From NCBI GenBank assembly GCA_934130175.1, contig CAKOXP010000003.1, positions 27,494 to 91,493 of the forward strand: a stretch of 64,000 nt of DNA, read 5' to 3'. Source of the stretch: an uncultured Bacilli bacterium (GTDB taxonomy: Bacteria; Bacillota_I; Bacilli_A; RF39; UBA660). Under the pieces are notes generated by a model. That model was not told where the DNA came from. It worked only from the letters and a program-made list of their open reading frames with translations, and did not search any database. Both the position numbers and the translations under genes were made by a program. Of this stretch, positions 41,178 to 60,517 are shown piece by piece. The stretch's first letter is position 1, and every line of letters starts with the position of its first letter.

Positions 41178-41217
41178 AAATTAATCTTGATTAATCATTT
41201 TAAGGAGATATTAAATA

Positions 41218-42015: not shown

Positions 42016-42082
42016 TATTTAATATGAAATAAGAGCTAAATCAATTAGCTTTTTTTGCATACAATACTATGGAGGTTTTGTT

Positions 42083-43480
42083 ATGAAGTATTTAGATGAT
42101 TTATATAAAGGTGAAAAACATATTCCTATTAGAGATATAAAAACTGATTCTAGGAATATTGAATCAGGAGATTTATTTGTAGCAATAAAAGGTTTCAATG
42201 TTGACCATAGTGAATTTGTTGATGATGCAATTAAAGCAGGGTGTTCTGCTGTTGTTAGTGATAAACATCTGGAAAAAAGTGTTCCATGTATTAAAGTTGG
42301 TAATTTAAGTGAAGAATTAACAAGACTTTGTAAAGAATTTTACAATTATAATAATGATTTAGAATTAATTGGTATTACAGGAACAGATGGTAAAACAACA
42401 ACTGCAACAATTATTCACCAATTACTTTCCAATTTTACAAAGAATGCATATCTTGGTACCAATGGTATTTGCTATAATAATATAAAACAAAAAACTGAAA
42501 ATACAACTCCTAGTAAAGAATATCTGTATAAGTGTTTTTCTTCTTTAAGAGATGCTAATTGTAAAAGCGTTGTAATGGAAACATCTAGCGAAGCCCTACT
42601 TCATGATAGAGTAGATTCCTTTAAATTTAAGTATGCTATATATACAAATATTACGGAAGATCATTTAAACATTCATAAAACTTTAGAAAACTATATTAAT
42701 TCTAAATTAAAACTAATTAATTACTTAAATAAAGATGGAGTAATTATTTTAAATAGTGACGATGAGGTTTTAAAAGATATTGCTAGTAGTCATAAAATAT
42801 ATACATATGGTAAAAACAGTCAAGCAGATTTTCAGATACTTGATATTAATTTAGATCCTAAAACAACATTTAAAATAAAATATTTAAATAAAATTTATGA
42901 ACTTGAAAGTCCTTATCCTTTTGAATATAACATCTATAATTTAACAGTGGGATTCATAGTTTGTGTTTTAGAAGGATATAATGCAGAAGAAATTATTCGG
43001 TATATAAGAAAATTAAAGCCAATCTCTGGAAGAAGTGAAGAATTAAATTTTAAAACAGATTATCATATTATTTTAGACTATGCTCATACTTTAAATGGAA
43101 TTAAGAACTTAATTGAAAACGTTAAAAACTACCATAAAAGAGTAATAGTGGTTACGGGTTCTGCTGGTGGTAGAGAAAAAGAAAAAAGAAGTAAGATAGG
43201 TTCATATTTATTAGATAATGCCAATTTTGTTGTTTTCACAATGGATGATCCTAGATATGAAAAAGTTGATGATATTATTGATGATATGTTAAAAGATACA
43301 AACAAGAATAATTATACAAGGATAGTAGATCGAAAAGAAGCTATTAATTATGCCTTGAGTCATGCTAAAAAAGATGATTATATTTTAATTATTGGTAAAG
43401 GTAGAGATAATTATATGGCACTTGAAGATAAAAAAGTTCCTTATTCAGACTATGAAGTAATAAAATCATATTTTGACTAG
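42083..43480 (+). CDS. murE: UDP-N-acetylmuramoyl-L-alanyl-D-glutamate--L-lysine (or mDAP) ligase MurE
   Basis: Mur ligase ATP-binding site GITGTDGKTTT with N- and C-terminal Mur ligase domains. It is stand-alone (not in a dcw cluster), as in Lys-type cocci. Confidence 0.85.
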   Translation: MKYLDDLYKGEKHIPIRDIKTDSRNIESGDLFVAIKGFNVDHSEFVDDAIKAGCSAVVSDKHLEKSVPCIKVGNLSEELTRLCKEFYNYNNDLELIGITGTDGKTTTATIIHQLLSNFTKNAYLGTNGICYNNIKQKTENTTPSKEYLYKCFSSLRDANCKSVVMETSSEALLHDRVDSFKFKYAIYTNITEDHLNIHKTLENYINSKLKLINYLNKDGVIILNSDDEVLKDIASSHKIYTYGKNSQADFQILDINLDPKTTFKIKYLNKIYELESPYPFEYNIYNLTVGFIVCVLEGYNAEEIIRYIRKLKPISGRSEELNFKTDYHIILDYAHTLNGIKNLIENVKNYHKRVIVVTGSAGGREKEKRSKIGSYLLDNANFVVFTMDDPRYEKVDDIIDDMLKDTNKNNYTRIVDRKEAINYALSHAKKDDYILIIGKGRDNYMALEDKKVPYSDYEVIKSYFD

Positions 43481-43551
43481 TAGATCTTGTTGATAAATTG
43501 TAAAAATTTAACAAAAATGCTATAATACTACTCAATTAGGTGTGTGGTAAT

Positions 43552-46290: not shown

Positions 46291-46570
46291 TATTTTGATA
46301 TATATAAATGTTATCAAGGCAATCTAACACACAAATGAAAAAAATAAAAAGTACTAAAAATTATTGAATTACTATCTTATGATTAATAAGAAATAGAATG
46401 AAAATGATACCATAAGATTTTATGAGGTGGCTTATGTTTAAAATTATGGAAAGAATACAAACAATAAAAATTAGTTACACTTTGTTTTTACATAGTTTGT
46501 AACCACCACGATATTGGTCTATAGAGAAGCTATACTAGATAAAAAGGTAAAATATAAACAATTAATATAA

Positions 46571-46583
46571 GAATAAATGTTCG
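46571..46583 (+). promoter_or_regulatory. Candidate LexA (Cheo) box upstream of the dinD-like gene
   Basis: GAATAAATGTTCG compared with the consensus CGAACRNRYGTTCG. The GAAT variant is the one in the B. subtilis recA box (CGAATATGCGTTCG). Lies 32 nt upstream of the start codon, overlapping the likely promoter. Confidence 0.4.
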
Positions 46584-46614
46584 GCATGGTATATAGTGAG
46601 GTGATTTAGTAAAA

Positions 46615-47445
46615 ATGAGTAATATGGAAGAATATAAAGAAGAAATCTTTGAAAGTATAAAACATCTTGATGGATTTGGAAATGAGTTTTGGGAAGCAAG
46701 AGAATTAATGCCTTTACTAGAATATAGTAAATGGGAAAATTTTCATAAAGTTATAAAACGTGCAAAGATTGCTTGTGAAACTAGTAATAACAAAGTTAGT
46801 GACCATTTTCCTGAGTTCAGGAAAATGGTTGACATAGGATCAAATACAAAAAGAGAAATTAATGATTATCATTTATCTAGGTATGCTTGTTATTTAATAG
46901 TTCAAAATGCAAATCCTAGAAAAAAATCAGTGGCTCTTGGGCAAACATATTTTGCAGTACAAACTAGAAAGCAAGAAATTACTGAGTTAGAATATTCAAG
47001 ATTAACTGAAGATGAAAAAAGATTATATACTAGGATTCTTGTTAATAACAAAAATAAATATTTATTTAAAACTGCTAGAGAAGCAGGCGTAGAAAATTTT
47101 GGCAAATTTAATAATTATGGATATAAAGGACTTTATAATGGAGAAACAGCTAAACAAATCGCAAAACGTAAAAATATAAAAGAAGATGAAGATATTCTTG
47201 ATTATATGGGTAGTGAGGAACTAGGTGCAAATTTATTCCGTATTACACAAACAGAAGCTAAACTAAAAAAAGATAATATAAATAATGAAGATGATGCTTG
47301 TTTAACTCATTACAATGTAGGTAAAACCGTTAGAAGAGCGATTGAAGAACTTGGGGGTAATATGCCAGAAACTTTACCAACTCCAGAAAAATCCATAAAG
47401 GAATTGGAAAAAGATGAATTACAAAAAATCGGAAATAATCAATAA
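46615..47445 (+). CDS. DNA damage-inducible protein D-like (Bro-N/KilA-N domain protein)
   Basis: The N-terminus IFESIKHLDGFGNEFWEARELMPLLEYSKWENF is Bro-N-like. Central YACYLIVQNANPRKKSVALGQTYFAVQTRK resembles DinD-family proteins. RBS GTGAGGTGA 10 nt before the ATG. Confidence 0.55.
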   Translation: MSNMEEYKEEIFESIKHLDGFGNEFWEARELMPLLEYSKWENFHKVIKRAKIACETSNNKVSDHFPEFRKMVDIGSNTKREINDYHLSRYACYLIVQNANPRKKSVALGQTYFAVQTRKQEITELEYSRLTEDEKRLYTRILVNNKNKYLFKTAREAGVENFGKFNNYGYKGLYNGETAKQIAKRKNIKEDEDILDYMGSEELGANLFRITQTEAKLKKDNINNEDDACLTHYNVGKTVRRAIEELGGNMPETLPTPEKSIKELEKDELQKIGNNQ

Positions 47446-47640
47446 ATATAATTAGTAATATATAAAAATTATTGAAATCAAATTTATATGGTACACTTTA
47501 ATTGGCTTTAGTCGTTATACAACAAGGAATAAGAGCAAAATTTAAAAGAGATAAATTTTGTTTGGCTTGACAATAAAAAAAAATAACTCTACAATAGAAT
47601 TAGATTATGATTAAAAAATTATATTCTAATGGAGGTATAT

Positions 47641-49194
47641 ATGAATGATATAGTATTCTCCATTTTACTTATAATAGTTGGATTAGCAGCAGGTATAGGT
47701 ATAACTTTTATAGTTAACTTATTTAAAGAAAACACAACTTCTAAAAAAATAGAAAAACTTCTTAATCAAGCTAAAAAAGATGCTGATAAATTAAAAAGAG
47801 ATGCAATTTTAGAACAAAAAGAAGAACAACATAGATTAAAAATGGAATTAGACAAGGAAATTAAAGAAAAAAAAGAAGAAATAAAAGATTCAGAAGCAAG
47901 ATTATTACAACGTGAAGCTAACATGGATAAACGTGATGAAATGTATCAAAAAAGAGAACTTGCTTTAGATGAAAGAGAGTCTAAATTAACAGAAAGTTTA
48001 GATGAAATCCAAAATGAAAAAAGTAAAGTGGAAGAAATCAAAAAAGAACAACTAGAACTACTAGAGAAAATCTCAGGATTTAGTAAAGAAAAAGCAAAAG
48101 ATTTAGTTATGAAACAAGTAAAAGAAAACATGACTAAGGAAATCTCTGAATATATCAGAGAACAAGAAAACGAAGCAAAATTAACAGCAGACAAAACAGC
48201 TAAAGAAATGATTGTTACATCAATGCAAAAATATGCAGCTGATATAGCTAGTGATCAAACTGTTACAGTTGTGGAATTACCTAATGATGAAATGAAGGGT
48301 AGAATCATTGGTCGTGAAGGTAGAAATATCCGTACAATTGAAGCAATTACTGGGGTTGATTTAATTATTGATGATACTCCTGAAGCTGTTGTATTATCAA
48401 GTTTTGACCCTCTAAGAAGAGAGATTGCTTATGTTACACTTCAAACTCTAATCAAAGATGGAAGAATCCATCCAACAAGAATTGAAGAGTTATATGATAA
48501 AGTTTGCAAGGATATGAAACAAAAGATTATTGAGTATGGAACTGATGCAACATTTGAACTTGGATTAACTAAGTTTGATCCGGAATTAATTGAAATAATT
48601 GGTAAACTTCATTTCAGAACTAGTTATGGTCAAAATGCATTACAACATTCAATTGAAGTTGCTAATCTTTCTGGATTAATTGCAGCTGAACTTGGAGAAA
48701 ACGTAATGCTTGCAAAACGTGCTGGATTACTACATGATATTGGAAAAGCAATCGATCATGAAATAGAAGGAAGCCATGTTGAAATTGGTGTGGATATAGC
48801 TAAGAAATTTAAAGAAGATGAAGTTGTTATTAATTCAATTGCATCTCATCATGGTGATACAAAAGCTGATAGTATTATCGCAGTCATAGTTGCTATTGCT
48901 GATGCTTTAAGTGCATCCCGCCCAGGAGCAAGAAATGACTCTTTAGAAAACTACATTAAACGACTTACTCAACTTGAAGAAGTTGGAAACAGCATTCCTG
49001 GAGTTGAAACATCATATGCAGTTCAAGCTGGTCGTGAACTAAGAGTTATTGTAAAACCAGAAGAAGTTGATGACCTACAAGCTCATAAAATTGCTAGAGA
49101 TGTAAAAGAAAAAATAGAGGAAACAATGAAATATCCTGGAACTGTAAAAATTACAGTAGTACGTGAAACTCGTGCTCAAGAAGAAGCTAAATAA
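47641..49194 (+). CDS. rny: Ribonuclease Y
   Basis: N-terminal TM helix, coiled coil, KH domain ([15 protein letters not shown]) and HD domain (LLHDIGKA...). Start ATG 47641 with the RBS AATGGAGG. Confidence 0.92.
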
Positions 49195-49580
49195 TGGAAA
49201 AAGTTAGAGAGTTTTTGATAAGTAAAAAGTTATGTGATAATAACTTTTTCTTATACATTAATAATCATATAGAGTTTATTTCTCCTAAATTAATCGATTT
49301 TGCCGGTTGTTATCAATTGGGTGATAAAATGAAAACAAAGGTTCCAAGAATTATCAATGATTATACTAGAAGCATTGTAATTCATGAACTTGGCCATTTA
49401 TATGATTATTATCAGAGTGGAAAAATAATAGAAAACGAAGACACTTCTCTATTATGGGAATTATTATACTTAAGATGTTCGAGTAATGAAGAATTGTTAT
49501 TAAATAGAATTAACAAAATCAATCAGGATACTTCCAGTGTTTATTATAAAAGTTTACAAAAAATAAAAAAAAGAAGTTAA
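49194..49580 (+). CDS. Small HExxH zinc-metallopeptidase-motif protein, hypothetical
   Basis: 128 aa containing VIHELGHLYDY. Its ATG overlaps the rny stop (TAATGG), so the two are translationally coupled. It occupies the position of ymdB in B. subtilis. Confidence 0.45.
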   Translation: MEKVREFLISKKLCDNNFFLYINNHIEFISPKLIDFAGCYQLGDKMKTKVPRIINDYTRSIVIHELGHLYDYYQSGKIIENEDTSLLWELLYLRCSSNEELLLNRINKINQDTSSVYYKSLQKIKKRS

Positions 49581-49606
49581 ACTTCAGTTTGAACTTCTTT
49601 TTTTAT
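49571..49606. terminator. Bidirectional terminator overlapping the 3-prime ends of two convergent CDS
   Basis: AAGAAGTT-(13 nt)-AACTTCTT hairpin with T runs on both strands. The stop codons of the + gene (49578-49580) and of rnjA (49577-49579, minus) lie inside the 5-prime arm. Confidence 0.5.
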
Positions 49607-51271
49607 GTCTATAATTACTGGTAAAATGATTGGATTTCTTCCCGTAAGTTTAGAAATATATGAATATAACTCACTAGTTAGGTTTGACTTTATAGAAGCA
49701 AAAGTAGAATGATGATCGGATAGTTCTTTTCTTAAAATACTTTCTGCTTTTTCTTCTATTTTCTTTAATAGTTCTTCGTTTTCATTAATTAAAATAAATC
49801 CTCTAGTTGTTATATTTGGTTTAATAAGTAACTCATGACGTTTCATATCAACGTTAATGATGACTACTAAAATACCATCTCTAGACATCATTTGGCGGTC
49901 TTTTAATACAGCTCCACCAATTTCTCCAATACGATTACCATCAACATAAATGTCATCACCTGGCATTGATTCACTTCTAGTAATTTCATGATTTACCAAA
50001 GAAAGTGAATCACCATTCTTTAAGACAAAAGTATTTTCTTTAGGAATACCACAATCAATACCAATATTAGCATGTCTTTTTAACATTCTATAATCTCCAT
50101 GGAATGGCATTAAATATTTTGGTTTCAATAAACGGATAGCAAGTTTTAATTCATCTTCATTAGCATGACCAGATGTATGTAGGTCAGCTAAAGCAGTATT
50201 TGTATAAACTTTTACTCCCTTTAAATATAGTTTATTGATAGTTTTTGAAATACTTAAAGCATTTCCTGGGATAGCACTAGAAGAGAATATTACAATATCA
50301 TCAGGTCTTAATTTTATTTGACGATGAGTTCCATTAGATATTCTTGAAAGTGCTGCCAAAGGTTCACCTTGACTACCAGTACATAAAATTGTTACCTCAT
50401 TTGGTTTTAAATTATTTGCTTCTTCAGCGGATACTAATAATTCTTTGTGATTGATGTATCCTCCATTAATAGAAATATTGATATTATTTTCCATACTTCT
50501 ACCAAAAATACAAATCTTTCTGTTATGTTTATAACAAGTTTCAAATATATGTTTTAAACGATAAATATTTGAGGCAAATGTTGCGATTATAATACGATTA
50601 TTTTTATATCTATCAAACATTTCAGCTAAAGCCCCATCAACTTTTGATTCTGATGCTGAATATCCTTCATTTAAAGCATTAGTTGAATCACTTATTAATA
50701 AATCTACTCCTTCATGTCCAAGAGTTGCCATTTTATATAAATCAGCCATTGGTCCAATTGGAGTTAAATCTAATTTAAAATCTCCTGTAGTAACAATTCT
50801 TCCATTTGGAGTTGTTAAACTTATACCATGTGAATCAGGTATAGAGTGAGTTATTCTGAAGAATTCGACATTGATTTCTCCAAAAGTTAGTTTAGAATCT
50901 TCGGTATATACGAATAAATTATCATAACGAATATTTTTATCTTCAAGTTTTACAGCTATTAATTCCTTAGCCTGATTAGGTGCGTATATCGCAGGTATAT
51001 TTATCTGACTAAGTAAAAATGGTATCGCACCAATATGATCTTCATGACCATGAGTAATAAGTAAAGCTCTAATTTTATCTTCATTTTCCTTTAAGAAAGT
51101 AAAATCTGGTAAAACATAATCAACCCCTAACAAATCACTTTCTGGAAAACTAATCCCCGCATCAATAATAACAATATCGTCTTTATGCATTACACAATAC
51201 ATATTTTTACCGACTTCTCCTAAACCTCCTAAAACAACTACTTTTGTTTCATTTGGTTTATTATCTTTCAT
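49577..51271 (-). CDS. rnjA: Ribonuclease J (J1-like)
   Basis: Metallo-beta-lactamase HxHxDH (ITHGHEDHIG), beta-CASP and C-terminal domains; 564 aa. RBS AAAGGAG. Confidence 0.92.
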   Translation of the reverse strand: MKDNKPNETKVVVLGGLGEVGKNMYCVMHKDDIVIIDAGISFPESDLLGVDYVLPDFTFLKENEDKIRALLITHGHEDHIGAIPFLLSQINIPAIYAPNQAKELIAVKLEDKNIRYDNLFVYTEDSKLTFGEINVEFFRITHSIPDSHGISLTTPNGRIVTTGDFKLDLTPIGPMADLYKMATLGHEGVDLLISDSTNALNEGYSASESKVDGALAEMFDRYKNNRIIIATFASNIYRLKHIFETCYKHNRKICIFGRSMENNINISINGGYINHKELLVSAEEANNLKPNEVTILCTGSQGEPLAALSRISNGTHRQIKLRPDDIVIFSSSAIPGNALSISKTINKLYLKGVKVYTNTALADLHTSGHANEDELKLAIRLLKPKYLMPFHGDYRMLKRHANIGIDCGIPKENTFVLKNGDSLSLVNHEITRSESMPGDDIYVDGNRIGEIGGAVLKDRQMMSRDGILVVIINVDMKRHELLIKPNITTRGFILINENEELLKKIEEKAESILRKELSDHHSTFASIKSNLTSELYSYISKLTGRNPIILPVIIDIKKEVQTEV

Positions 51272-51442
51272 AAATACTCCTTTCTTTTTAAGTTAATTTT
51301 ATACACAAAAGAACTAACCAATCTAGATTATACACTAAAAGTTAGTTTTTGTAAATAAGTAGGCAATAATATATAAACCACTTTATAATTATTTGAATTT
51401 ATTTTATTTTCTTTTTATGATATAATTTTTCTAGGTGATAAC

Positions 51443-52516
51443 ATGGGAATTTTTAACAAACTAAAAAATATGTTCAAAGAAAAAAATACTGACTTAGAAG
51501 AAGAACAAGTAAGTAGTGAATCTAACAAGAAAGAAAACTTATCTTCTAAAAAAAGTCCTAGTGAGACAAAAAAACAAGATAAGAAAAAAAATAATGTCAA
51601 AAAATATGAAAAAGGTCTTACTAAATCAAGAGAAGGTTTTGTTTCAAAATTAGTAAACCTTACAAATAAGTATGACAAAATTAATGAGGATTTTTTTGAA
51701 GAGTTAGAAGAGATTCTAATAATGGCTGATATTGGTGTTAATACAGTTATGGAATTTATGGATAAATTAAGACTTCGTGTTAGAAATGAAAAAATAGAAG
51801 ATCCAGAAATATTAAAAGAAGTTATAGTAGATGAATTATTTATTATATATGTTAATGATGAGGTATTAGTAAATAAGATTAATTTTGCAAAAACTGGACC
51901 TACAGTTATCTTATTTGTAGGTGTTAATGGAGTTGGAAAAACAACAACTATTGGAAAAATAGCCTATAATTTAAAAGAAGAAGGTAAGAAAGTTTTATTA
52001 GTAGGAGCAGATACCTTTAGAGCTGGGGCAATAGAACAATTAAAAGATTGGAGTCAAAAAGTTAATGTTGATTTCTGTTCAAAAGAAGAAGGCAGTGATC
52101 CAGCTAGTGTTGTTTATGATGGTGTATCTAAAGCTATAAGCGAAAAATATGATGTTGTACTTGTGGATACTGCAGGAAGACTTCAAAATAAAGTTAACTT
52201 AATGAAAGAATTAGAAAAAATGAATAAAGTAATCTCTTCTTTGATAGAAGGTGGAGCTCATGAAACACTATTAGTTCTTGATGCGACTACTGGTCAAAAT
52301 GGAATTAGCCAAGCTAAAAGTTTTAAAGAAATTACTAATATAACAGGTATAGTTTTAACTAAGCTAGATGGTACAGCTAAAGGTGGAATCGTTTTAGCAA
52401 TCAAGGAAGAAGTAGGATTGCCTGTTAAATATATTGGTCTTGGTGAAGCTAAGGATGACCTAGAAGTGTTCGATATTGAAAAATATATTTATGGACTATT
52501 TAAAGATATGATGTAG
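51443..52516 (+). CDS. ftsY: Signal recognition particle receptor FtsY
   Basis: Charged N-terminal region plus the NG domain (GVNGVGKTTTIGK, DTAGR, TKLDG). Confidence 0.92.
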   Translation: MGIFNKLKNMFKEKNTDLEEEQVSSESNKKENLSSKKSPSETKKQDKKKNNVKKYEKGLTKSREGFVSKLVNLTNKYDKINEDFFEELEEILIMADIGVNTVMEFMDKLRLRVRNEKIEDPEILKEVIVDELFIIYVNDEVLVNKINFAKTGPTVILFVGVNGVGKTTTIGKIAYNLKEEGKKVLLVGADTFRAGAIEQLKDWSQKVNVDFCSKEEGSDPASVVYDGVSKAISEKYDVVLVDTAGRLQNKVNLMKELEKMNKVISSLIEGGAHETLLVLDATTGQNGISQAKSFKEITNITGIVLTKLDGTAKGGIVLAIKEEVGLPVKYIGLGEAKDDLEVFDIEKYIYGLFKDMM

Positions 52517-52523
52517 GTGTAAT

Positions 52524-52817
52524 ATGGAAGAATTTATTTATTATAATAACTTATATGACTGTTATAACTTACTATTAACAGAAAAACAAAGAAAATACTT
52601 TGAGGAGTATTATTTCAACAACTTAAGTTTGTCAGAAATAGCGGGAATTTATAATATAAGTAGAAATGCCTGTTATAAACAGATTCAAATAACAATAGAG
52701 AAATTAAAAGATTATGAAGAAAAGCTAGGTCTATATCAGAAAAATAAAAAAATAGAAGAATTAATTTCTATAGAAAAAGATGAAAATATTAAAAAGGTAT
52801 TAGAAAGTTTAATCTAA
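52524..52817 (+). CDS. ylxM: UPF0122/YlxM-family putative DNA-binding protein
   Basis: Small sigma-70 region-4-like HTH protein (LSLSEIAGIYNISRNACYKQI) in the canonical position between ftsY and ffh. Confidence 0.75.
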   Translation: MEEFIYYNNLYDCYNLLLTEKQRKYFEEYYFNNLSLSEIAGIYNISRNACYKQIQITIEKLKDYEEKLGLYQKNKKIEELISIEKDENIKKVLESLI

Positions 52818-52905
52818 TATCTTTTTTCTTTGCTTGTAAAAGTCATTAAAAAAATGTATAATCTAATTATAGAAAATAGCAAGTAAAAGAATAAGAGGGA
52901 TAAAT

Positions 52906-55053
52906 ATGTTTGATAAAATAGTATATATTAGTGATAGGTCTGCTAATATCAAATTAAAAGAAGGAACAGATGTAAAGATAAATTTAATGAACTTACACTT
53001 GATTTTTGAAGACAAAGATAAAAAAATACTAGGTGAAGTTGATGATGTTGATAAAGATCTTGTAAAAGCAAGATTCTTAGGAGAAATAGTAAATGGTAAT
53101 CTATTAGGTGGTGTTATCAGAAAACCATCACTAGATTCTACTATCAGAGTTATAACTAAAGAAGAAATTCCATTAATTGTTGGTTCAGAACGCCCTGGTT
53201 ATATGCCTTTAGGTGTAAGTCCTTTCTATAATGATTTTCCAGTTTACATGAATGTTAATAGTTTCTTTAGTAATCACTTTGCTATCTTTGGTAACAGTGG
53301 TTCAGGTAAAAGTTGTGGTGTCTCAAGAATTATTCAAAATATGTTTCATGATAAAAATTTATTTCCATATAAGGCAAATATATTTATGTTTGATTCCTCT
53401 GCAGAATACTATAGTGCATTTCGTAATTTAAATGCCATTAATCCTAACTTTAATTATAGATTTTATTCAACTAATGAAAAAGAAGGAATCGGAGAAAAAT
53501 TAAGAATCCCTATTTGGTTACTTAATGTTGATGATTTATCTCTTTTATTACAAATTACTAATCATTCTCAAATTCCAATCATTGAAAGAATGTTGAAACT
53601 AGCTTTAATATTTTCTGAGGATGGAGAACGTGCTGAAGCATATAAAAACCATTTAATCGCTAAGGCAATTATGTCAATTTTATATACAAATGAAACATCT
53701 CCTAATAAAAGAAATGAAATATTTACAATTTTAGGTAGTTGTTCTACAAAGCAATTTAATTTAGAAGCTCCAGTACAAGGCATTGGTTACACTAGAAAGT
53801 TTAGAGAGTGTTTCTTAATCGATTCTCAAGGGAATTTCTCCGAAAGTGTTTTATTAAATGAATATGTTTCTAGTTTTATAAAAGAAGAATTTGATTCATA
53901 TGAACCAAAGGGTGGAACTTATTATGACCTAGATACATTAGAAAAAGCCCTAAACTTTACTTTGATTAGTGAAGGATGGTTAAGAAATAAAAATACTTAT
54001 GGTGATGCTGTTACAATTAGAGTTAGACTTCACTCATTAATAGTAGGTGAGTATGCTAAATATTTTGATTACAAAGATTATGTTACTCAAGAGCAATATC
54101 TTTCATCTTTATTGATAGATGGTGGTAAAAAATATCAATTTGTTAATATTAACTTTGATGATGTTGATGACTGGTTTGCTAAAGTTATTACAAAGGTTTA
54201 TACAAGAATTATTTTTGATTTCTGTAAAAATCTAAAAGATAGAGCGACAATTCCATTTAATATTATTGTAGAAGAAGCTCATAGATATATTCAAAATGAT
54301 ACAGATAGATTCTTACTTGGATATAATATATTTGAACGTGTTGCTAAAGAAGGTCGTAAATATGGTGTCTTACTTGGTTTGATTTCTCAAAGACCAGTAG
54401 AATTATCAGATACAGTTATTTCTCAATGTTCAAGTTTCTTAATATTTAAAATGAACCATCCAACAGATGTTGAATATATTAGAAAAATGGTTCCAAACAT
54501 TAGTGATGAAATTGTTGAAAAACAAAAAACACTTCAGGCTGGTACTTGTTTAGGCTTCGGTATGGCTTTTAAAATTCCTTTAATAGTTAAATTGAAAATG
54601 CCAGATCCAGAACCAAGAAGTGGTAACTGTGACGTGTGTAGAATTTGGAACGGAAATAAGAATATAGTAGTAAATCAACAACAAGAGCCAGCTGTAAGTC
54701 CGACTATTCAAAATAAGGTTGAAGAACCAGAACTTATTTCTAGTTCTGTATCAGAAAAAAACGATAGTGGAATAACACTTACAAATCAAGTATTAGAAAA
54801 ACAAAATAACGTGATTAATTCTAATAATTGGAGGGCAGCAGTTACTTCTTCAGAAGTAGTATCAACTGTTCCGGTTGAAAAAGTAAAAGAAACAAACCAA
54901 CAAGTAATTGAAGAACCTCTTATTACTCCTATAAACGATGAAGAAGAACCTTCACTAATTACTGTTCCAATAAAAAATGAAAATACTCCATCTAACTCAT
55001 TAGATATCAATGATATTATTAATGCACCAGATGAAGATAATAATATAGAATAA
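52906..55053 (+). CDS. HerA/DUF87-family P-loop ATPase (FtsK-HerA superfamily) with ~150 aa low-complexity C-terminal tail
   Basis: Walker A FAIFGNSGSGKSCG. Walker B plus helicase-type motif IIVEEAHRYI. C-terminal DUF87/HerA signature LGLISQRPVELSDTVISQCSSFLIFKMNHPTDVEYI. N-terminal beta-barrel-like about 110 aa. C-terminal S/T/N/E/P-rich tail. Own extended -10 promoter (TGTATAAT at about 52850) and a weak terminator at about 55056-55075. Confidence 0.65.
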   Translation: MFDKIVYISDRSANIKLKEGTDVKINLMNLHLIFEDKDKKILGEVDDVDKDLVKARFLGEIVNGNLLGGVIRKPSLDSTIRVITKEEIPLIVGSERPGYMPLGVSPFYNDFPVYMNVNSFFSNHFAIFGNSGSGKSCGVSRIIQNMFHDKNLFPYKANIFMFDSSAEYYSAFRNLNAINPNFNYRFYSTNEKEGIGEKLRIPIWLLNVDDLSLLLQITNHSQIPIIERMLKLALIFSEDGERAEAYKNHLIAKAIMSILYTNETSPNKRNEIFTILGSCSTKQFNLEAPVQGIGYTRKFRECFLIDSQGNFSESVLLNEYVSSFIKEEFDSYEPKGGTYYDLDTLEKALNFTLISEGWLRNKNTYGDAVTIRVRLHSLIVGEYAKYFDYKDYVTQEQYLSSLLIDGGKKYQFVNINFDDVDDWFAKVITKVYTRIIFDFCKNLKDRATIPFNIIVEEAHRYIQNDTDRFLLGYNIFERVAKEGRKYGVLLGLISQRPVELSDTVISQCSSFLIFKMNHPTDVEYIRKMVPNISDEIVEKQKTLQAGTCLGFGMAFKIPLIVKLKMPDPEPRSGNCDVCRIWNGNKNIVVNQQQEPAVSPTIQNKVEEPELISSSVSEKNDSGITLTNQVLEKQNNVINSNNWRAAVTSSEVVSTVPVEKVKETNQQVIEEPLITPINDEEEPSLITVPIKNENTPSNSLDINDIINAPDEDNNIE

Positions 55054-55124
55054 AGGCATTTAATGTCTTTTTCTTTGTTTACTTATTTTTCTAATTCTTG
55101 TATAATAATTTTTAGGTGATAAAA

Positions 55125-56432
55125 ATGTTTGAAAGTTTAGGAGACAGATTACAAAATGTTATTCATAAAGTAAAAGGTTATGGAACAATTACTGAAGATA
55201 ATATTAAAGATATAATGCGTGATGTACGTCTTGCACTATTAGAAGCAGATGTTAACTATCAGGTAGTTAAAGAATTCACGTCTATCGTTAAAGAAAAAGC
55301 CTTAGGTGAAGAAGTTCAAAAAAGTATTAAACCAGGAGATTTATTTGTAAAAATTGTACAAGATGAATTAGTAGAACTTCTAGGAGGAGAGGCTAAACCT
55401 CTTAATCTAAATGGAAGTCCTGCAATTACAATGTTAGTAGGTCTTCAAGGTTCAGGAAAAACTACTACAACTGGAAAGTTAGCTAATTACTTAAGAAAAA
55501 AACATGCTAAAAAACCACTTTTAGTAGCATGTGATGTCTATAGACCTGCCGCAATTGATCAGTTAAAACAAATTGGTAAACAACTTAATATTGAAGTTTA
55601 TGAAGAAGGTAAAAAAGATCCTGTAGAAATATCTAAAAATGCAGTTAATTATGCTAAAGATAATGGTTATGACTATGTACTAATTGATACTGCAGGACGT
55701 CTTCATATCGATGAAGAATTAATGGAAGAATTAAAAAATATTAATGAGCAATTAAATCCTCAAGAAGTATTATTGGTAATAGATTCAATGATGGGACAAG
55801 ATGCAATTAACGTTATAACTGGTTTCAATGATAAATTACCTCTAACAGGGGTTATCTTAACAAAATTAGATGGTGATACTAGAGGTGGTGTTGCTCTATC
55901 AGTTAGACATTTAACTAATGTTCCAATTAAATTTATTGGTGTTAGTGAAAAGATGGATGGACTTGATTCTTTTGATCCAGAACGTATGGCAGGAAGAATT
56001 CTTGGAATGGGTGATATTGTTTCATTAGTAGAAAAAGCTCAAGATGCAATTGATGAAAAAGAAGCAGAAAAAACTGCTAAAAGAATGCAACAAGGGAAAT
56101 TTGACTTAGAAGATTTCTTATCAACTATGAAACAAATGAAAAAATTAGGACCACTAGAAAACTTAATAAAGTTAATTCCAGGAGCAAGAAAAATGGGACT
56201 TGATAGTGTCAAAATTGATCCAAAACAAATGGCTCATGTAGAGGCAATAGTATTATCAATGACTCCAAAAGAAAGAAGAAATCCCGAGATAATAAAGGCA
56301 AGTCGTAAAACAAGAATTGCTAAGGGTAGTGGTACTTCAGTTCAAGAGGTAAACAAACTATTGCAACAATTCGATCAAATGAAAAAAATGATGAAACAAA
56401 TGAGTAATGGTAATTTTAAAATGCCATTTTAA
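55125..56432 (+). CDS. ffh: Signal recognition particle protein Ffh (SRP54)
   Basis: NG domain (GLQGSGKTTTTGK, DTAGR, TKLDGD) plus a Met-rich M domain. Start ATG 55125 (RBS AGGTGA). Confidence 0.95.
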   Translation: MFESLGDRLQNVIHKVKGYGTITEDNIKDIMRDVRLALLEADVNYQVVKEFTSIVKEKALGEEVQKSIKPGDLFVKIVQDELVELLGGEAKPLNLNGSPAITMLVGLQGSGKTTTTGKLANYLRKKHAKKPLLVACDVYRPAAIDQLKQIGKQLNIEVYEEGKKDPVEISKNAVNYAKDNGYDYVLIDTAGRLHIDEELMEELKNINEQLNPQEVLLVIDSMMGQDAINVITGFNDKLPLTGVILTKLDGDTRGGVALSVRHLTNVPIKFIGVSEKMDGLDSFDPERMAGRILGMGDIVSLVEKAQDAIDEKEAEKTAKRMQQGKFDLEDFLSTMKQMKKLGPLENLIKLIPGARKMGLDSVKIDPKQMAHVEAIVLSMTPKERRNPEIIKASRKTRIAKGSGTSVQEVNKLLQQFDQMKKMMKQMSNGNFKMPF

Positions 56433-56506
56433 GAATAGACCTATAAGGTCTTTTTCTATTCCTATTTTATTGTAAATTATGTTAAAATAAATTTAGGTGA
56501 TGTAAT

Positions 56507-57838
56507 GTGAATATAGAGGAAAAAGCATTAAAGTTTGCTATTAAAGCTCACTATGGTCAGGTAAGAAAAAGTGAAAAGGATAAACCAATGATAGTTCATC
56601 CTATAAATGTAGGATATATTTTAAAAGAATATGATTTTGATGAAAATGTTGTTGCAGCAGGATATTTACATGATGTAGTAGAAGATACAAAATATGAAGA
56701 AAGTGATATTCTAAAGGAGTTTGGATCTGATATAGCTTCACTTGTTATGACAGCTAGTGAGCCTATAAAAAGTCTTCCTTGGGAAGAAAGAAAACAACAT
56801 ACAATTGACACAGTTAAAAATCTTGACTTAAGACATAAAGCAGTTGTTTGTGCAGACAAGATTAGTAACCTAGAAGATTTAATAATTCTTTCAGAAAAAC
56901 AAGGCAATTATGATTTTTCAGCATTTAATAGAGGTTATGATAGTCAAAAGTGGTATTATACAGAAATCTATAATTCACTAATACTTAATGACAGCCATCC
57001 TATGTTTGATAGATTAAAAAAACTATTAGATCATATTTTTTCAGGTAGTAAAGATAGCTATGTAGAAGAAGTTATCTATGATAATGATGATGAATATAGT
57101 AAAGTTTTAAAGCTTCATTATAAAAAGTTAGAATTAAACAAACTAAAAAATGTATTTGAAATTAATCCATACGTAATCGAATTTACTGGTACACCACGTA
57201 CAGGAAAAACTACCTTAATAAACAATTTAAAAGATTTCTTTAAAAAGGGTGGTTTTGATACAAGTATTTTAGAGGAGTTTACAACATCAGAAAGATATAA
57301 GAAAACTATTTTTCCAAAATTAAAAAATGAATACAAAAATGTTGTAAATATGGAAATTCCTAAATATGTTTTACAAGATTTAGAAGAAGAGTTACAAAAA
57401 AATAAAGACATAATTATTGTAGACAGATGTCTATTTGATAGATTAATTTGGGTAGATAGATTGTATCTAAAAGATGGTATGACTAAAAAAGAATATGATG
57501 ATTATAAAGAGTTTTATATTCCAAAAATCAAAGAAAAAATAAATATAATTATTTCAACTTATACTGATAGCCTTACTTCTATAAGAAGAGATTATAAAGC
57601 CAATTTATCTCTCGAAAAGAGGAGTTTCTTGAATGAGACCAATGTAGATGAATATAATAAATCATTATTTAATATGGAAAAAGTAGCTAAAGAAGAATCA
57701 ATTAATTTTCATATATTTGATACAACAAAAAAATCTGAAAGAGATATTTCTATTGAAGTTGCAAATAAAATTTTAGATGATATGAGAAAATTTTACTTAG
57801 TAGAAATAAATAAAAGAATTGGGCAAATAGTTAAGTAA
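56507..57838 (+). CDS. Fusion protein: RelA/SpoT-type HD hydrolase domain (small alarmone hydrolase-like) + P-loop nucleoside/nucleotide-kinase-like domain
   Basis: N-terminal ~180 aa ALKFAIKAHYGQVRKSEKDKPMIVHPINVGYIL...AAGYLHDVVEDT...EFGSDIASLV matches the (p)ppGpp-hydrolase HD domain, including the HD dyad. The C-terminal ~250 aa carries Walker A FTGTPRTGKTTL and an IIIVDRCLFDRLIWVDR segment resembling the dNK/NadR-type kinase DRS-like motif. GTG start at 56507 with AGGTGA 6 nt upstream. Confidence 0.6.
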   Translation: MNIEEKALKFAIKAHYGQVRKSEKDKPMIVHPINVGYILKEYDFDENVVAAGYLHDVVEDTKYEESDILKEFGSDIASLVMTASEPIKSLPWEERKQHTIDTVKNLDLRHKAVVCADKISNLEDLIILSEKQGNYDFSAFNRGYDSQKWYYTEIYNSLILNDSHPMFDRLKKLLDHIFSGSKDSYVEEVIYDNDDEYSKVLKLHYKKLELNKLKNVFEINPYVIEFTGTPRTGKTTLINNLKDFFKKGGFDTSILEEFTTSERYKKTIFPKLKNEYKNVVNMEIPKYVLQDLEEELQKNKDIIIVDRCLFDRLIWVDRLYLKDGMTKKEYDDYKEFYIPKIKEKINIIISTYTDSLTSIRRDYKANLSLEKRSFLNETNVDEYNKSLFNMEKVAKEESINFHIFDTTKKSERDISIEVANKILDDMRKFYLVEINKRIGQIVK

Positions 57839-57892
57839 TATTAACTATTTTTCTTTTTAGTGGTATAATCTTTATGGATAGAAGGTAATAAA

Positions 57893-60517
57893 ATGATTCA
57901 AATATTTGATATAAAAAAGTCTAAAAAAAATTTAAAAAGCAATAATAATGAAATCTTGGAAGAATATATTGAAGAGTCAAAGAAAGATAGTGAAGATGAT
58001 TTCTTAAGACTCAAGACATCTTTAAATGGACTATCTAATATGGAAGCTAGAAATCGTTTTAACAAGTACGGTAAAAATATAGTTATAAAAGAAGATAATA
58101 AAGGTCCATTATATTTTTTATTAATGTCATTTAAAGATGAATTTATTATTATTTTAATCTTTCTAGCAATAATTAATTTCTTTCTTGGTGATAAATTAGG
58201 TTCTATAATTATTTTGGTAATAGCGTTTATCAGTGCTCTTATTAGATTTTTTCAAGATTATTCTGTTTATAAATTTAATAAGAAATTAAAGAGTAAAATC
58301 TATTCAACTGTTACAGTGTTAAGAAATAATGAAGAAATGGAAATAAAAGTAGAAGATGTTGTTGTTGGAGATATCGTTAAACTAAATGCTGGTACAATTG
58401 TTCCGGCAGATATAAAGATTGTTGAATCAAAAGATTTATTTGTTAATCAATCTGTATTTACAGGTGAAAGTATTTTAGTTGAGAAGACTACTGAATCATC
58501 AAAAGCTTGCAGTCAAATATTTGATATAAATAATATTTGCTTAATGGGTGTAACTATCGAGAGTGGTAGAGCTACAGGTGTCGTCATAAAAACAGGATCT
58601 AATACTTATCTAGGACAAGTTGGTAGTGAAATAAGTATTAAAAAGGAAGTCACTAACTTTGATAAAGGCATTAAAAATATTTCTAATTTATTAATAAAAT
58701 ATATGATTGTAGTTTGTTTAGTTGTAATAGTAATTGATGGAGTTATAAAACAAAATATCAGTGAAGCTTTGCTTTTTGCTCTTTCTGTTGCAGTTGGAAT
58801 AACTCCTTCAATGTTACCAATGATTCTAAATGTTAATTTAACAAAAGGAAGTAAAAGTCTTGCTAAAAAGAAAACTCTTGTTAAAAAAATAGAATCAATT
58901 CAAAATTTAGGAGCCATTGATATTTTATGTACAGACAAAACAGGGACATTAACAGAAAATAAAATAACTTTACAGAAATATATTGATGCATCTGGTAAGG
59001 AAAATGAAGATATATTAGAGTATGCATATTTAAATAGTTTATATAGTACAGGAATAAAAAATTTAGTTGATAAGGCAATAATTACATATGGACGTGATCA
59101 TTTAGATATTTCTAAAATCGAAAAGTTAGAAAAAATAGATGAAATTCCATTTGATTATACAAGAAAAAAGCAAAGTGTAGTTGTTAAAAATAAAACATCA
59201 TATAGAATGATTACAAAAGGTGCATTGGAAGAAGTAATTAAAGGTTGTGTAAATGCTAAAATTGGTGGAAAAACAGTTAATCTTAATGATGAAATAACTA
59301 ATATTATCAAAGATAAGGCTAAGACTTTAGCAAGTGATGGAATGCAAGTAATTGCTCTTGCTTTTAAAGAAAGTTATCCTGGTAAAGATAAATTTAATGC
59401 ATCATGTGAAAATGAAATGATTTTCGTTGGATTTGTTGGTTTCTTAGATCCGGCCAAAAAAGATGTTAAAACAACACTTTCTAATTTAGAAAAAATTGGT
59501 GTTAAAACAAAAATATTAACAGGAGATAATCCTTATGCAACCAGAAATATTTGTAATATGGTTGGTTTAAATGGTAATGATATTTTGCTTGGCAGTGATA
59601 TAGATAATATGACAGATATAGAATTATCAGAAAAAATAGAAAAAGTAGATGTTTTTGCAAGAATGAATCCACTTCAAAAAGAAAGAGTTGTAGAATTATA
59701 TCGTAAAAATAATCATGTTGTTGGTTACATGGGTGATGGAGTAAATGATGCACCTTCGCTTACGAAAGCTGATGTAGGAATATCAGTCTCATCTGCTACT
59801 TCTATAGCCAAAGAGGCTAGTGATATTATTATTTTGAAACAGAGTTTAAAGGTAATTTATGATGGCGTCTTAGAGGGTAGAAAAGTCTATGGAAATATTA
59901 TTAAATATATGAAGATGGCCTTAAGTGCTGATTTTGGTGATGTTTTTAGTATCATGATAGCCAGTATATTTCTTCCTTTCCTTCCTCTTCTTCCAATTCA
60001 AATGTTATTGCAAGACTTTATCTATGATTTTTCACAAATAGGAATTCCCTATGATAACGTTGATTCTGAATTCTTAGAAAAACCTAAAAAATGGGATACA
60101 AAGGGAATATCAAGATTTATGAAAGTTATGGGTATTACTAGTTCGCTAATTGATGTTATTTCATTTATTATTTTCTGGTTTGTTCTAGGCTATAATGATA
60201 TCAGTAAACAAACATTTTTTCAAACAGCTTGGTTTGTAACTTGCTTAACTACAGAATTAATGATTATATACAATGTTAGAACTGCTAAAAAACCATTTAT
60301 TGAATCTAATGCTAGCGCTAAACTAAATTTACTAACTATATTCTCATTAGTGTTGACTATTATAACTCCTATTGTACTTTGTAAAATTGAAACATTCCAT
60401 TTTGTTATATTACCACTTGAATTTTATATTTTCTTAATTGGATTAGTTTTCCTATATTTTATAATTGTTTCTGTTATTAAAAAGATATATATTAAAAAAT
60501 ATGGTGAATGGCTTTAA
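57893..60517 (+). CDS. P-type ATPase, Mg2+-importing MgtA-like (P3B) or related cation pump
   Basis: Phosphorylation motif CTDKTGTLT, hinge GDGVNDAPSL, TGES in the actuator domain (TGESILVEK) and 10 TM helices. 874 aa with an N-terminus like MgtA. Confidence 0.8.
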   Translation: MIQIFDIKKSKKNLKSNNNEILEEYIEESKKDSEDDFLRLKTSLNGLSNMEARNRFNKYGKNIVIKEDNKGPLYFLLMSFKDEFIIILIFLAIINFFLGDKLGSIIILVIAFISALIRFFQDYSVYKFNKKLKSKIYSTVTVLRNNEEMEIKVEDVVVGDIVKLNAGTIVPADIKIVESKDLFVNQSVFTGESILVEKTTESSKACSQIFDINNICLMGVTIESGRATGVVIKTGSNTYLGQVGSEISIKKEVTNFDKGIKNISNLLIKYMIVVCLVVIVIDGVIKQNISEALLFALSVAVGITPSMLPMILNVNLTKGSKSLAKKKTLVKKIESIQNLGAIDILCTDKTGTLTENKITLQKYIDASGKENEDILEYAYLNSLYSTGIKNLVDKAIITYGRDHLDISKIEKLEKIDEIPFDYTRKKQSVVVKNKTSYRMITKGALEEVIKGCVNAKIGGKTVNLNDEITNIIKDKAKTLASDGMQVIALAFKESYPGKDKFNASCENEMIFVGFVGFLDPAKKDVKTTLSNLEKIGVKTKILTGDNPYATRNICNMVGLNGNDILLGSDIDNMTDIELSEKIEKVDVFARMNPLQKERVVELYRKNNHVVGYMGDGVNDAPSLTKADVGISVSSATSIAKEASDIIILKQSLKVIYDGVLEGRKVYGNIIKYMKMALSADFGDVFSIMIASIFLPFLPLLPIQMLLQDFIYDFSQIGIPYDNVDSEFLEKPKKWDTKGISRFMKVMGITSSLIDVISFIIFWFVLGYNDISKQTFFQTAWFVTCLTTELMIIYNVRTAKKPFIESNASAKLNLLTIFSLVLTIITPIVLCKIETFHFVILPLEFYIFLIGLVFLYFIIVSVIKKIYIKKYGEWL

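Follow-up and report, generated by a model that had tools for sequence, protein, structure and literature searches.

A HerA-type ATPase without a linked partner gene, encoded between ylxM and ffh in a clade of uncultured gut Bacilli

Why should a HerA-type ATPase be encoded between ylxM and ffh, among the genes of the signal recognition particle (SRP), with no partner gene beside it? Nearly all that is currently understood of bacterial HerA ATPases concerns motors working for a partner enzyme, either NurA in repair, or SIR2 or DUF4297 in phage defence. The window considered here, a 64,000-nucleotide stretch of contig CAKOXP010000003.1 from an uncultured Bacilli bacterium, contains an open reading frame with an ATG start (52906-55053, plus strand, 715 amino acids, stop codon counted) that the first-pass annotation had singled out as a HerA-family gene lying between ylxM and ffh. 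We find this gene, hereafter herA, and its motifs as they had been described. The ftsY gene lies upstream of ylxM, at 51443-52516, and conservation places the start of ffh at the ATG of 55125 instead of the GTG of 55116.

52524..52817, plus strand: ylxM, conserved upstream neighbour (Pfam UPF0122, E 8.5e-24; synteny in relatives)
52893..52899, plus strand: ribosome-binding site AAGAGGG, 6 nt before the herA ATG (direct sequence reading; GAGGG or AGGAG at the same place in relatives)
52906..55053, plus strand: herA-family gene, 715 aa (profile searches, motifs, predicted structure, fold searches)
55125..56432, plus strand: ffh, downstream neighbour (Pfam SRP54, SRP_SPB, SRP54_N)

The product of herA is a HerA-type P-loop ATPase of the FtsK-HerA superfamily. 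The Pfam DUF87/HerA profile (PF01935), which had been proposed as a check, matches it with 75.4 bits against a gathering cut-off of 23.2 (E 9.2e-21), and the PADLOC HerA profile PDLC04102 with 353 bits over residues 93-588 (E 9e-106). Its matches among PDB sequences are HerA without exception, and the top ones are anti-phage HerA complexes. An AlphaFold model of the monomer (pLDDT 89, pTM 0.88), built on a 146-sequence family alignment spanning three subfamilies, aligns full-length to HerA structures in a fold search. VirB4, TraG/TrwB and FtsK were also considered as its family and rejected, as the HMMs, the AlphaFold model and the fold searches all lead to HerA. We found neither a VirB4 or TraG model match with conjugation genes nearby, as expected of a type IV secretion ATPase, nor an FtsK/SpoIIIE motor domain accompanied by an N-terminal membrane domain and a gamma domain. 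HerA matches outscore secretion ATPases in the fold search, and the protein has no membrane segment or signal peptide.

The model predicts the architecture of a HerA protein: first a beta-barrel (HAS-barrel), then a RecA-like core into which a helical bundle is inserted. The barrel-like N-terminal region suspected at first reading is thus borne out by the predicted structure, and the helical bundle corresponds to the alpha-bundle domain of Paenibacillus HerA (PMC11472057).

52906..53253, plus strand: predicted N-terminal beta-barrel region, residues 1-116 (beta strands only over residues 2-116 in the AlphaFold model)
53290..53313, plus strand: Walker A GNSGSGKS, residues 129-136 (G129, G132, G134, K135 and S136 invariant, n = 146)
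53521..54117, plus strand: predicted helical-bundle insertion in the RecA-like core, residues ~206-404 (AlphaFold helices H208-H403)
54262..54282, plus strand: Walker B IIVEEAH, residues 453-459 (E456, E457, A458, H459 and R460 invariant, n = 146)
54349..54438, plus strand: EGRKYG...SQRPVEL...SQC block of the ATPase core, residues 482-511 (invariant residues, n = 146)

Within the last block, which comprises EGRKYG (residues 482-487), SQRPVEL (494-500) and SQCSSF (506-511), the residues E482, G483, R484, K485, G487, Q495, R496, P497, S506, Q507 and C508 are invariant in the 146-sequence alignment. Judged by sequence, all catalytic motifs of the protein are intact.

Is this, then, the HerA of a SIR2-HerA defence system? 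The closest relatives outside the solo family to which it belongs are indeed the HerA subunits of such anti-phage systems. However, true members score 750-800 bits against PDLC04102 over their full length, compared with 300-380 bits for the solo family, which leaves the first ~90-145 positions of the profile (the extreme N-terminus) unmatched. The NCBIfam scores of the herA product are similarly low, at 159 against a cut-off of 850 for HerA_antiphage_2 and 128 against 800 for HerA_antiphage. The Walker A motif is preceded by 128-131 residues in the solo family, against a median of 188 in SIR2-type HerAs, with four deletions. SIR2 docks on the beta-barrels of HerA (PMC11472057), and it is from the N-terminal barrel region, the SIR2 docking domain in the solved complexes, that about 60 residues are missing in the solo family. 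Compared with these complexes, exemplified by Paenibacillus 8wiv/8wld and E. coli 8su9/8j4u, the window's HerA is shorter by ~60 residues in the N-terminus, the barrel loops and the linker, and has an acidic hypervariable tail as an added feature. Its gene is surrounded by housekeeping genes in conserved synteny, not by a defence island, and has ylxM instead of SIR2 upstream. In each of the five PDLC04102-type contexts examined, by contrast, a SIR2_2 gene overlaps herA, and several of the five lie in defence islands. We observed neither a full-length score at the level of members nor a patchy, defence-island or mobile distribution. The relationship being unrooted, the solo form could derive from a defence HerA, or the reverse.

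The earlier remark that no NurA, SIR2 or DUF4297 gene adjoins herA holds for the window, where the adjacent genes are ylxM and ffh. An HMM built from three SIR2 partners gave zero matches in the window or in the related loci L001-L086, and no SIR2 or nuclease gene occurs near solo-family herA in five different contexts. On present evidence, ylxM is not a functional partner of herA. Small ORFs upstream of one orthologue (P0333) were considered as hidden YlxM-like or partner proteins and rejected: none resembles any gene of the window from rny through the P-type ATPase gene (ylxM among them), and they are confined to one lineage.

The other known systems differ in comparable ways. Unlike DUF4297-HerA (9c1m, 8ziq, 8xau), herA has no adjacent gene for a DUF4297/Cap4-like nuclease, no DUF4297 gene being annotated beside it in the window or the contexts examined, and it belongs to the core genes of its lineage instead of having a patchy distribution. 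Unlike the archaeal and Deinococcus-Thermus HerA-NurA end-resection motor (4d2i, 7f6d, 9x1l), it has no adjacent NurA, Mre11 or Rad50 gene; there is no NurA/mre11/rad50 operon at the locus and no match at equivalog level (90 bits against a cut-off of 970 for helicase_HerA, NF040819; 105 against 800 for HerA_Thermprot, NF040937), and by sequence the protein is nearer to the defence HerAs. With FtsK and SpoIIIE it shares the superfamily of ring motors. Literature searches on HerA together with ylxM returned no papers, those on HerA/FtsK/Mollicutes and on standalone or orphan HerA returned nothing relevant, and PMC10868615 gives no FtsK or SpoIIIE data for RFN20 or RF39.

How did herA come to stand in the SRP cluster? 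Essentially all of the 80 species-level relatives with upstream sequence have herA directly after ylxM (ftsY-ylxM-herA), and so do 46 of 55 informative loci found via FtsY alone. Core identity of the protein among relatives is 73-100%, with a median of 76%. Compared with the related locus L001, the herA core has 26 nucleotide differences in 1770 nt and zero amino-acid changes, and core differences among near-identical strains are synonymous only. The gene is a vertically inherited core gene of this clade of uncultured gut Bacilli, whose genomes are labelled as Bacilli or Tenericutes MAGs and include Ca. Faecimonas and Ca. Onthousia. The comparison of the ylxM-ffh interval, which had been suggested as a means of detecting presence/absence polymorphism, showed herA after ylxM in all close relatives; a lineage core gene was the outcome that the first-pass annotation had itself set against an insertion. 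An origin from a prophage or plasmid was ruled out, the best homologue in phage and plasmid records being only ~31% identical.

The position after ylxM is nonetheless derived. Five to seven deeper relatives, with FtsY 64-74% identical, retain the ylxM-ffh adjacency (L109, L146, L147, L162, L164, L172, L176). Orthologues in RF39-like 'Acholeplasma sp.' MAGs (41-50% identity) are found at other housekeeping loci with no partner gene. Their neighbours are a gene for a yqeH-like GTPase, a gene of the flippase family (MurJ/Polysacc_synt) or unknown ORFs, and not SRP genes. These two observations together indicate that an ancient insertion or relocation took place, and this is all that survives of the inserted cassette initially proposed, since a recent or polymorphic insertion is at odds with the constant position in relatives.

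In at least 12 relatives 3-4.5 kb of unrelated genes separate herA from ffh, and unrelated genes intervene at ylxM-herA or herA-ffh in many; these gap genes are variable and unrelated (for example fmt, or genes for membrane proteins). The window itself has variable and possibly mobile genes near herA, namely those for a DUF2726-containing SF1 helicase and for a Bro-N protein (43540-47445) and an HD+AAA gene (56507-57838). The ORF list and Pfam annotation of the window contain no repeats, integrase or mobile-element genes flanking herA, which has the same GC content (0.284) and GC3 (0.149) as ftsY and ffh.

Is herA transcribed together with its neighbours? Three signals bear on this question.

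52834..52862, plus strand: sigma-A type promoter of herA, TTGTAA-17-TATAAT (site found; position conserved in relatives)
55054..55072, plus strand: weak terminator-like hairpin AGGCATttaATGTCTT followed by a T-run (weak fold, -12 kcal/mol over 86 nt, z -1.5)
55078..55106, plus strand: promoter-like site of ffh, TTTACT-17-TATAAT (site found; recurs in relatives inspected)

In this AT-rich window, single-sequence scanning finds 30 promoter sites where 31.7 are expected; such sites occur at chance frequency in AT-rich DNA, and we rejected the promoter count as stand-alone evidence. Conservation is more informative: in about 75 of 80 related loci, some of them without an adjacent ylxM, the same -35/17-nt/-10 layout stands 27-47 nt before the herA ATG, with diverged sequence all around it. 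A layout kept while its flanks diverge is likely to be a genuine herA promoter. The promoter of its own that the first-pass annotation gave to herA is thereby upheld, but not the extended -10 element, since the TG abuts the hexamer instead of forming TGnTATAAT, and the promoter scan scores the site as not extended. The hairpin after herA, rightly called weak, scored below the terminator threshold used; a hairpin with T-run within ~100 nt of the herA stop is found in 50 of 77 relatives, where it is stronger than the window's. Given the promoter conserved across relatives and the hairpin in about two thirds of them, herA is probably its own transcription unit. Several relatives also have a terminator between ylxM and herA. 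The separate promoter ascribed to ffh agrees with a layout, TTTACTT...TGTATAAT, that is also present in L003, L018, L020, L026 and L033. An Rfam scan of 49000-58000 gave zero RNA families, which rules out a leader or riboswitch as explanation of the intergenic regions.

The C-terminal tail, already noted as long and disordered, is unusual too. It is acidic, and N, S, T, P and Q are abundant in it.

54661..55050, plus strand: acidic tail predicted to be disordered, residues 586-715 (pLDDT < 50 from residue 587)
54686..54915, plus strand: hypervariable central tail segment (alignment to L001 and L002)
54910..55050, plus strand: conserved C-terminal peptides, EEPLITPIN..SLITVPIK..SLDINDIINAPDEDNNIE (conservation among relatives)

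Among relatives the tail ranges from a few residues to ~430 aa and is absent in many orthologues (~590 aa); its composition is about 50% N+S+T+P+Q, with 13.9% D+E and 3.3% K+R. The central segment is ~55-60% identical in nucleotides to L001 and L002 (estimated by eye), with near-identical sequence on both sides. At least four unrelated versions of it, with sharp borders, exist among proteins whose cores are 99.5-100% identical. By comparison, the last 50 residues are 70-98% identical where the central tail is only 23-32% identical, and the final 45 residues of 44 of 74 tails contain the motif P-[LI]-[IVP]-x-[IVLF]-[TNPSD], against 0.5 expected from shuffles; the window's own tail has the variant SLITVP. 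A diversity-generating retroelement was considered as the source of this variability and rejected, as no template-like repeat of the tail exists anywhere in the 64-kb window and the differences between strains are not limited to adenines. Variation of this kind between strains looks more like the signature of an arms race than like a housekeeping trait. At the same time, the FtsK plan of a motor, a long low-complexity linker and a short anchoring element is mirrored by this protein in reversed order.

What could such a protein do? On balance we favour an effector-less HerA motor, encoded by a core gene and probably engaged in a housekeeping DNA role, the role being deduced from context; we think this account probable, though far from secure. 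By analogy with other HerAs, the protein would assemble as a hexameric ring and spend ATP on the translocation or unwinding of nucleic acid, here without a dedicated effector. The tail may act as a flexible tether or regulator, its terminal peptide binding a partner or the ring itself, and the location in the SRP cluster would reflect a historical relocation in the ancestor of the clade, with no functional coupling. The role would more likely lie in some housekeeping transaction on DNA (segregation of the chromosome, resolution or repair, for example) than in classical abortive-infection defence. Three things count against this account: the closest characterised relatives of the solo HerA are all defence proteins, the tail is hypervariable at the level of strains, and variable, possibly mobile genes lie nearby. 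The search for partners in this genome covered the 64 kb of the window, and an unlinked SIR2, NurA or other effector may be encoded elsewhere in it. A bolder proposal, which we put forward as speculation and consider possible but doubtful, is that a motor of the SIR2-HerA branch has become an essential, effector-less core gene in wall-bearing, genome-reduced gut Bacilli, where it would translocate chromosomal DNA in an FtsK-like or repair capacity, tethered to the division or replication machinery through its rapidly diversifying acidic linker and conserved C-terminal docking peptide; or, conversely, that it is a constitutive single-gene HerA immune sensor with the hypervariable tail as its contested surface.

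Could the protein still be immune? It might work as a HerA motor or sensor with an unlinked effector, or act alone by depleting ATP or translocating invading DNA, the tail being an interface contested with phage proteins. The kinship with SIR2-HerA subunits, the anti-phage complexes heading the PDB matches, the unrelated, sharply bordered tail versions on identical cores and the variable accessory genes close by all point this way. Against it stand a near-universal and syntenic occurrence in the clade, with vertical descent and strong purifying selection; housekeeping neighbours and no defence island; flanks without SIR2, by the HMM, in the window and L001-L086; a trimmed effector-docking barrel; many tailless orthologues; and anti-phage equivalog scores far under their cut-offs. 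Taken together, these make an immune function rather unlikely. A recent, self-contained and possibly mobile cassette, present in some close relatives and absent from others, would fit a gene with its own promoter and terminator and the survival of ylxM-ffh adjacency in some deeper relatives, but herA has the same place in all close relatives, does not differ in composition from the genes next to it, is not flanked by repeats or by integrase or mobile-element genes, and has no close homologue on phages or plasmids, and orthologues sit at other chromosomal sites across a wider group of Bacilli; we regard this history as highly improbable. Equally remote is a functional coupling to the SRP pathway, secretion or the divisome, for instance as a secretion or membrane-targeting ATPase. 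The link to the divisome or secretion raised by the first-pass annotation found no support, and it is countered by the separate herA promoter and the ylxM-herA terminator of several relatives, by the unrelated genes inserted on either side of herA in many, by RF39-like orthologues away from SRP genes, and by a protein that lacks both membrane segment and signal peptide and resembles HerA more than secretion ATPases.

A large and abundant group of uncultured gut Bacilli thus keeps a HerA with no linked partner and a trimmed docking barrel. Should the housekeeping role be true, the family would allow the old proposal of HerA as a chromosome-handling motor to be tested in bacteria, and would exemplify exchange between the machinery of immunity and that of the core; should a defence role be true, it would amount to a minimal HerA system of a single gene. 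The combination of an invariant core, a linker that is hypervariable between strains and a conserved terminal peptide is unusual, and gives a concrete starting point in the search for the partner. A practical consequence for annotation is that PADLOC-style HerA matches in the genomes of this clade should not be taken to denote SIR2-HerA defence.

The gene lying between ylxM and ffh encodes an intact HerA ATPase. The reading frame proposed in the first-pass annotation is real, and all the HerA motifs claimed for it are present in its translation. The main features of the interval are:

51443-52516: ftsY, upstream of ylxM
52524-52817: ylxM, 5' neighbour of herA (Pfam UPF0122, E 8.5e-24)
52834-52862: promoter-like TTGTAA-17-TATAAT, before herA
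52906-55053, + strand: herA, confirmed ORF of 715 aa
aa 129-136 of HerA: Walker A, GNSGSGKS
aa 453-459 of HerA: Walker B, IIVEEAH
aa 482-487 of HerA: EGRKYG
aa 494-500 of HerA: SQRPVEL
aa 506-508 of HerA: SQC
about 54686-54915: hypervariable tail segment of roughly 230 nt, from comparison of the window with its closest relatives, loci L001 and L002
55078-55106: promoter-like TTTACT-17-TATAAT, before ffh
55125: ATG, conserved start of ffh, the 3' neighbour of herA

Profile searches bore out the assignment to the HerA/DUF87 family: the product scores 75 bits against Pfam DUF87/HerA (cut-off 23) and only 16.5 bits against the VirB4-like model of NCBIfam (cut-off 325). Within NCBIfam only HerA models gave significant E-values, every one far under its equivalog cut-off. 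The best PADLOC model is the HerA of SIR2-HerA systems, PDLC04102 (E 9e-106, covering aa 93-588), and the nine PDB sequence matches are HerA proteins from DUF4297-HerA, SIR2-HerA and HerA-NurA complexes together with the related TdpA. An AlphaFold model built from a 146-sequence alignment covering three subfamilies (pLDDT 89, pTM 0.88) predicts both the barrel-like N-terminus and the disordered tail described initially:

residues 2-116: N-terminal region of beta strands
central part: RecA-like core
residues about 206-404: helical insertion
from residue 587: disorder

Is this gene a cassette inserted into the ftsY-ylxM-ffh operon, as first proposed, or a core gene of the lineage? A one-genome-per-species scan returned 102 relatives, 80 of which were kept; these are uncultured gut MAGs labelled Bacilli, Tenericutes or Erysipelotrichaceae, with Candidatus Faecimonas and Candidatus Onthousia among them. 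Using the window's neighbour genes in tblastn, we recovered the order ftsY-ylxM-herA in essentially every relative locus with upstream sequence, ffh following herA either directly or 3-4.5 kb further on. Gaps in this order are filled by unrelated, variable genes such as fmt or genes for membrane proteins. A sample independent of herA was obtained by retrieving 80 metagenome loci via FtsY alone, 55 of which had enough downstream sequence: herA comes after ylxM in 46, ffh follows ylxM directly in five (two short contigs are arranged likewise), and neither gene lies within reach in four. FtsY from the loci lacking herA is 64-74% identical to that of the window, a range shared by many loci that carry the gene.

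Other comparisons also speak for vertical descent. Identity of the HerA core (aa 1-585) across species is 73-100% with a median of 76%, comparable to FtsY and above YlxM. Between the window and L001, this core shows 26 nucleotide differences in 1770 and zero amino-acid changes, with DNA identities of 97.5% for ffh and 96.6% for ylxM. The GC content (0.284) and GC3 (0.149) of herA are the values of ftsY and ffh, and no homologue above about 31% identity was found in the phage and plasmid records searched. Standing in the same place after ylxM across relatives, herA is a lineage core gene by the first test set out in the initial proposal. Its position between ylxM and ffh is derived all the same, since these two genes adjoin each other in deeper relatives and in Firmicutes generally. 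Two differing herA copies, sharing 67% and 75% identity with that of the window, lie at loci L047 and L057 of one MAG bin, BRZ_BV__bin67; either they are true paralogues or the bin is mixed.

Promoter-like sites occur at chance frequency in this 27% GC DNA (30 found, 31.7 expected), so the call at 52834-52862 is weak when taken alone, without comparison. We compared the 110 nt 5' of herA in all loci: a CTTGTAA, CTTGTCA or CTTGAAA box, a spacer of exactly 17 nt and TATAAT are found 27-47 nt before the ATG in about 75 of 80. The -10 box is not extended in the TGn sense, contrary to the initial description. Several relatives have a hairpin and T-run between ylxM and the herA promoter, and 50 of 77 loci have one 3' of the herA stop codon; the window's hairpin, weak as originally noted, is a degenerate counterpart of these. 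The ffh promoter, also part of the original proposal, recurs in the relatives inspected, and an Rfam search of the herA region returned no structured RNA. These sequence comparisons support the view of herA as its own, self-contained transcription unit. The ORF lister starts ffh at a GTG (55116), whereas the ATG at 55125 (MFESLGDRL), preceded by AGGTGA, is common to all relatives.

In L011 (4155-5889), as in L013, L014, L020, L021, L027, L045 and L050, ylxM and herA stand 0.9-3 kb apart with unrelated genes between them, and the herA promoter is still found directly 5' of herA. Insertions at the ylxM-herA junction appear to have happened repeatedly.

How does this HerA relate to the partnered systems? 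In every context examined of the PDLC04102 type, a SIR2_2 gene lies immediately upstream of herA and overlaps it; several of these loci form part of defence islands that also carry PglZ, JetD or type I restriction-modification genes, and one context is plasmid-borne, in Lactobacillus. By contrast, a SIR2 HMM (a small one, built from three of these SIR2 proteins) gave zero matches among all ORFs of the window and the flanks of L001-L086, in line with the initial remark that no partner adjoins the gene. Members of the PDLC04102 type match their model from end to end at 750-800 bits; our HerA and its partnerless orthologues, hereafter the solo family, score 300-380 bits with the extreme N-terminus unmatched. 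In a joint alignment, 128-131 residues precede Walker A in the solo family, against a median of 188 in the SIR2 type, the difference arising from four deletions (N-terminus, two barrel loops and the barrel-core linker). In the Paenibacillus complex, SIR2 docks by its alpha-1 helix, which sits between two beta-barrels of HerA, and mutating the barrel does away with both assembly and defence (PMC11472057). With no linked SIR2 gene and a trimmed barrel, the solo family thus lacks both the partner gene and part of its docking domain. It is an effector-less, chromosomally fixed subfamily, either a sister group of the SIR2-HerA motor or a derivative of it.

An exhaustive profile-free search yielded 4120 relatives at E<=1e-3, including a graded series of full-length proteins at 31-45% identity. 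A profile made from the latter revealed a large tail-less family of about 590 aa in 'Acholeplasma sp.' (a label which corresponds to RF39-type organisms), Candidatus Faecisoma and Bacilli MAGs. Its genes lie downstream of two small ORFs of unknown kind, between genes for a yqeH-like GTPase and a pilin-like protein, with recA-rny a few kb upstream, between a yqeH-like gene and a SNF2 helicase gene, or after a flippase-family (MurJ/Polysacc_synt) gene. These contexts differ from the window and from one another, and all four are devoid of SIR2, NurA or other nuclease partners. We found no description of the solo family in the searchable literature. As a side observation, recA, rny and herA are close neighbours, a few kb apart, in the window (40152-55053) as well as in L084 (1641-7773), where the order around the distant orthologue P0281 is recA-rny-HAD-yqeH-herA. 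It may be that herA first resided near recA-rny and that ftsY-ylxM arrived afterwards.

In relatives the C-terminal tail can be as short as a few residues or as long as about 430 aa. Tails of at least 40 aa contain about 50% N+S+T+P+Q, 13.9% D+E and 3.3% K+R. Its variability is unusually high: among proteins that share 99.5-100% identity with the window's HerA over the 583-aa core, the central part of the tail exists in at least four unrelated versions (23-32% identity), and the last 50 residues of their tails are 70-98% identical. Within 54686-54915, the window and L001/L002 share an estimated 55-60% nucleotide identity, with sharp borders and near-identical DNA on both sides. Uniform relaxed constraint cannot give this pattern, which requires allelic segment exchange or local diversifying selection; a template repeat, the sign of a diversity-generating retroelement, was absent from the window. 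A motif P-[LI]-[IVP]-x-[IVLF]-[TNPSD], defined after inspection of the data, is present within the final 45 residues in 44 of 74 tails, where shuffled sequences would give 0.5 (about 90-fold enrichment). It takes the forms PLITVP, PLVSIT and PIPEIN near the C-terminus, the window carrying the variant SLITVP. The terminal peptide (54910-55050; tails of L005-L080) reads PLITVPIK, PLVSITP or PIPEININ followed by acidic residues, often twice. Tethering hubs such as FtsZ and SSB are built on this plan of folded core, variable disordered linker and conserved terminal peptide, and the peptide offers a testable handle.

The initial observation of the ORF, its motifs and its location thus stands, its interpretation only in part. 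We consider it fairly probable that herA is an intact, effector-less core gene whose product would form a hexameric ring and translocate nucleic acid without a dedicated effector, the tail perhaps tethering or regulating the motor. Its role would more likely be a housekeeping DNA transaction, and its place among SRP genes would reflect a historical relocation. Our confidence in what the gene is and in its evolutionary status is high, that in its biological role low. The main competing explanation, that HerA is still an immune component acting with an unlinked effector or alone, draws on its kinship with defence relatives and the arms-race look of the tail; we find it doubtful, since synteny is conserved, the gene is universal in the clade and under purifying selection, and many orthologues have no tail.

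A recent cassette, to which the derived placement lends some colour, is very improbable in view of synteny and vertical descent. Just as improbable is coupling to SRP, secretion or the divisome: a separate transcription unit with its own, conserved promoter argues against a functional link to the SRP genes. The solo HerA is not a new kind of machine, but its family is well defined and abundant and runs counter to the expectation that HerA always has a partner.

The window also encodes a class A penicillin-binding protein and a Mur ligase, so the organism is not wall-less. Between the Mur ligase gene and rny (43540-47445), a 916-aa SF1 helicase (AAA_11/AAA_12) with a C-terminal DUF2726/REase-like domain is followed by a Bro-N domain protein; the pair looks like an insertion, of mobile or defence type, among housekeeping genes. 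A 128-aa ORF overlapping the rny stop codon (49194-49580) carries an HExxH motif (VIHELGH), has no Pfam match and, among the relative loci compared, is found in L001 and L002 only. Downstream of ffh, 56507-57838 encodes a 443-aa protein with HD_4 (RelA/SpoT-like HD) and AAA_28 P-loop domains; L001 shares this gene, L002 retains a remnant of it and other relatives lack it, which marks it as a variable accessory gene.
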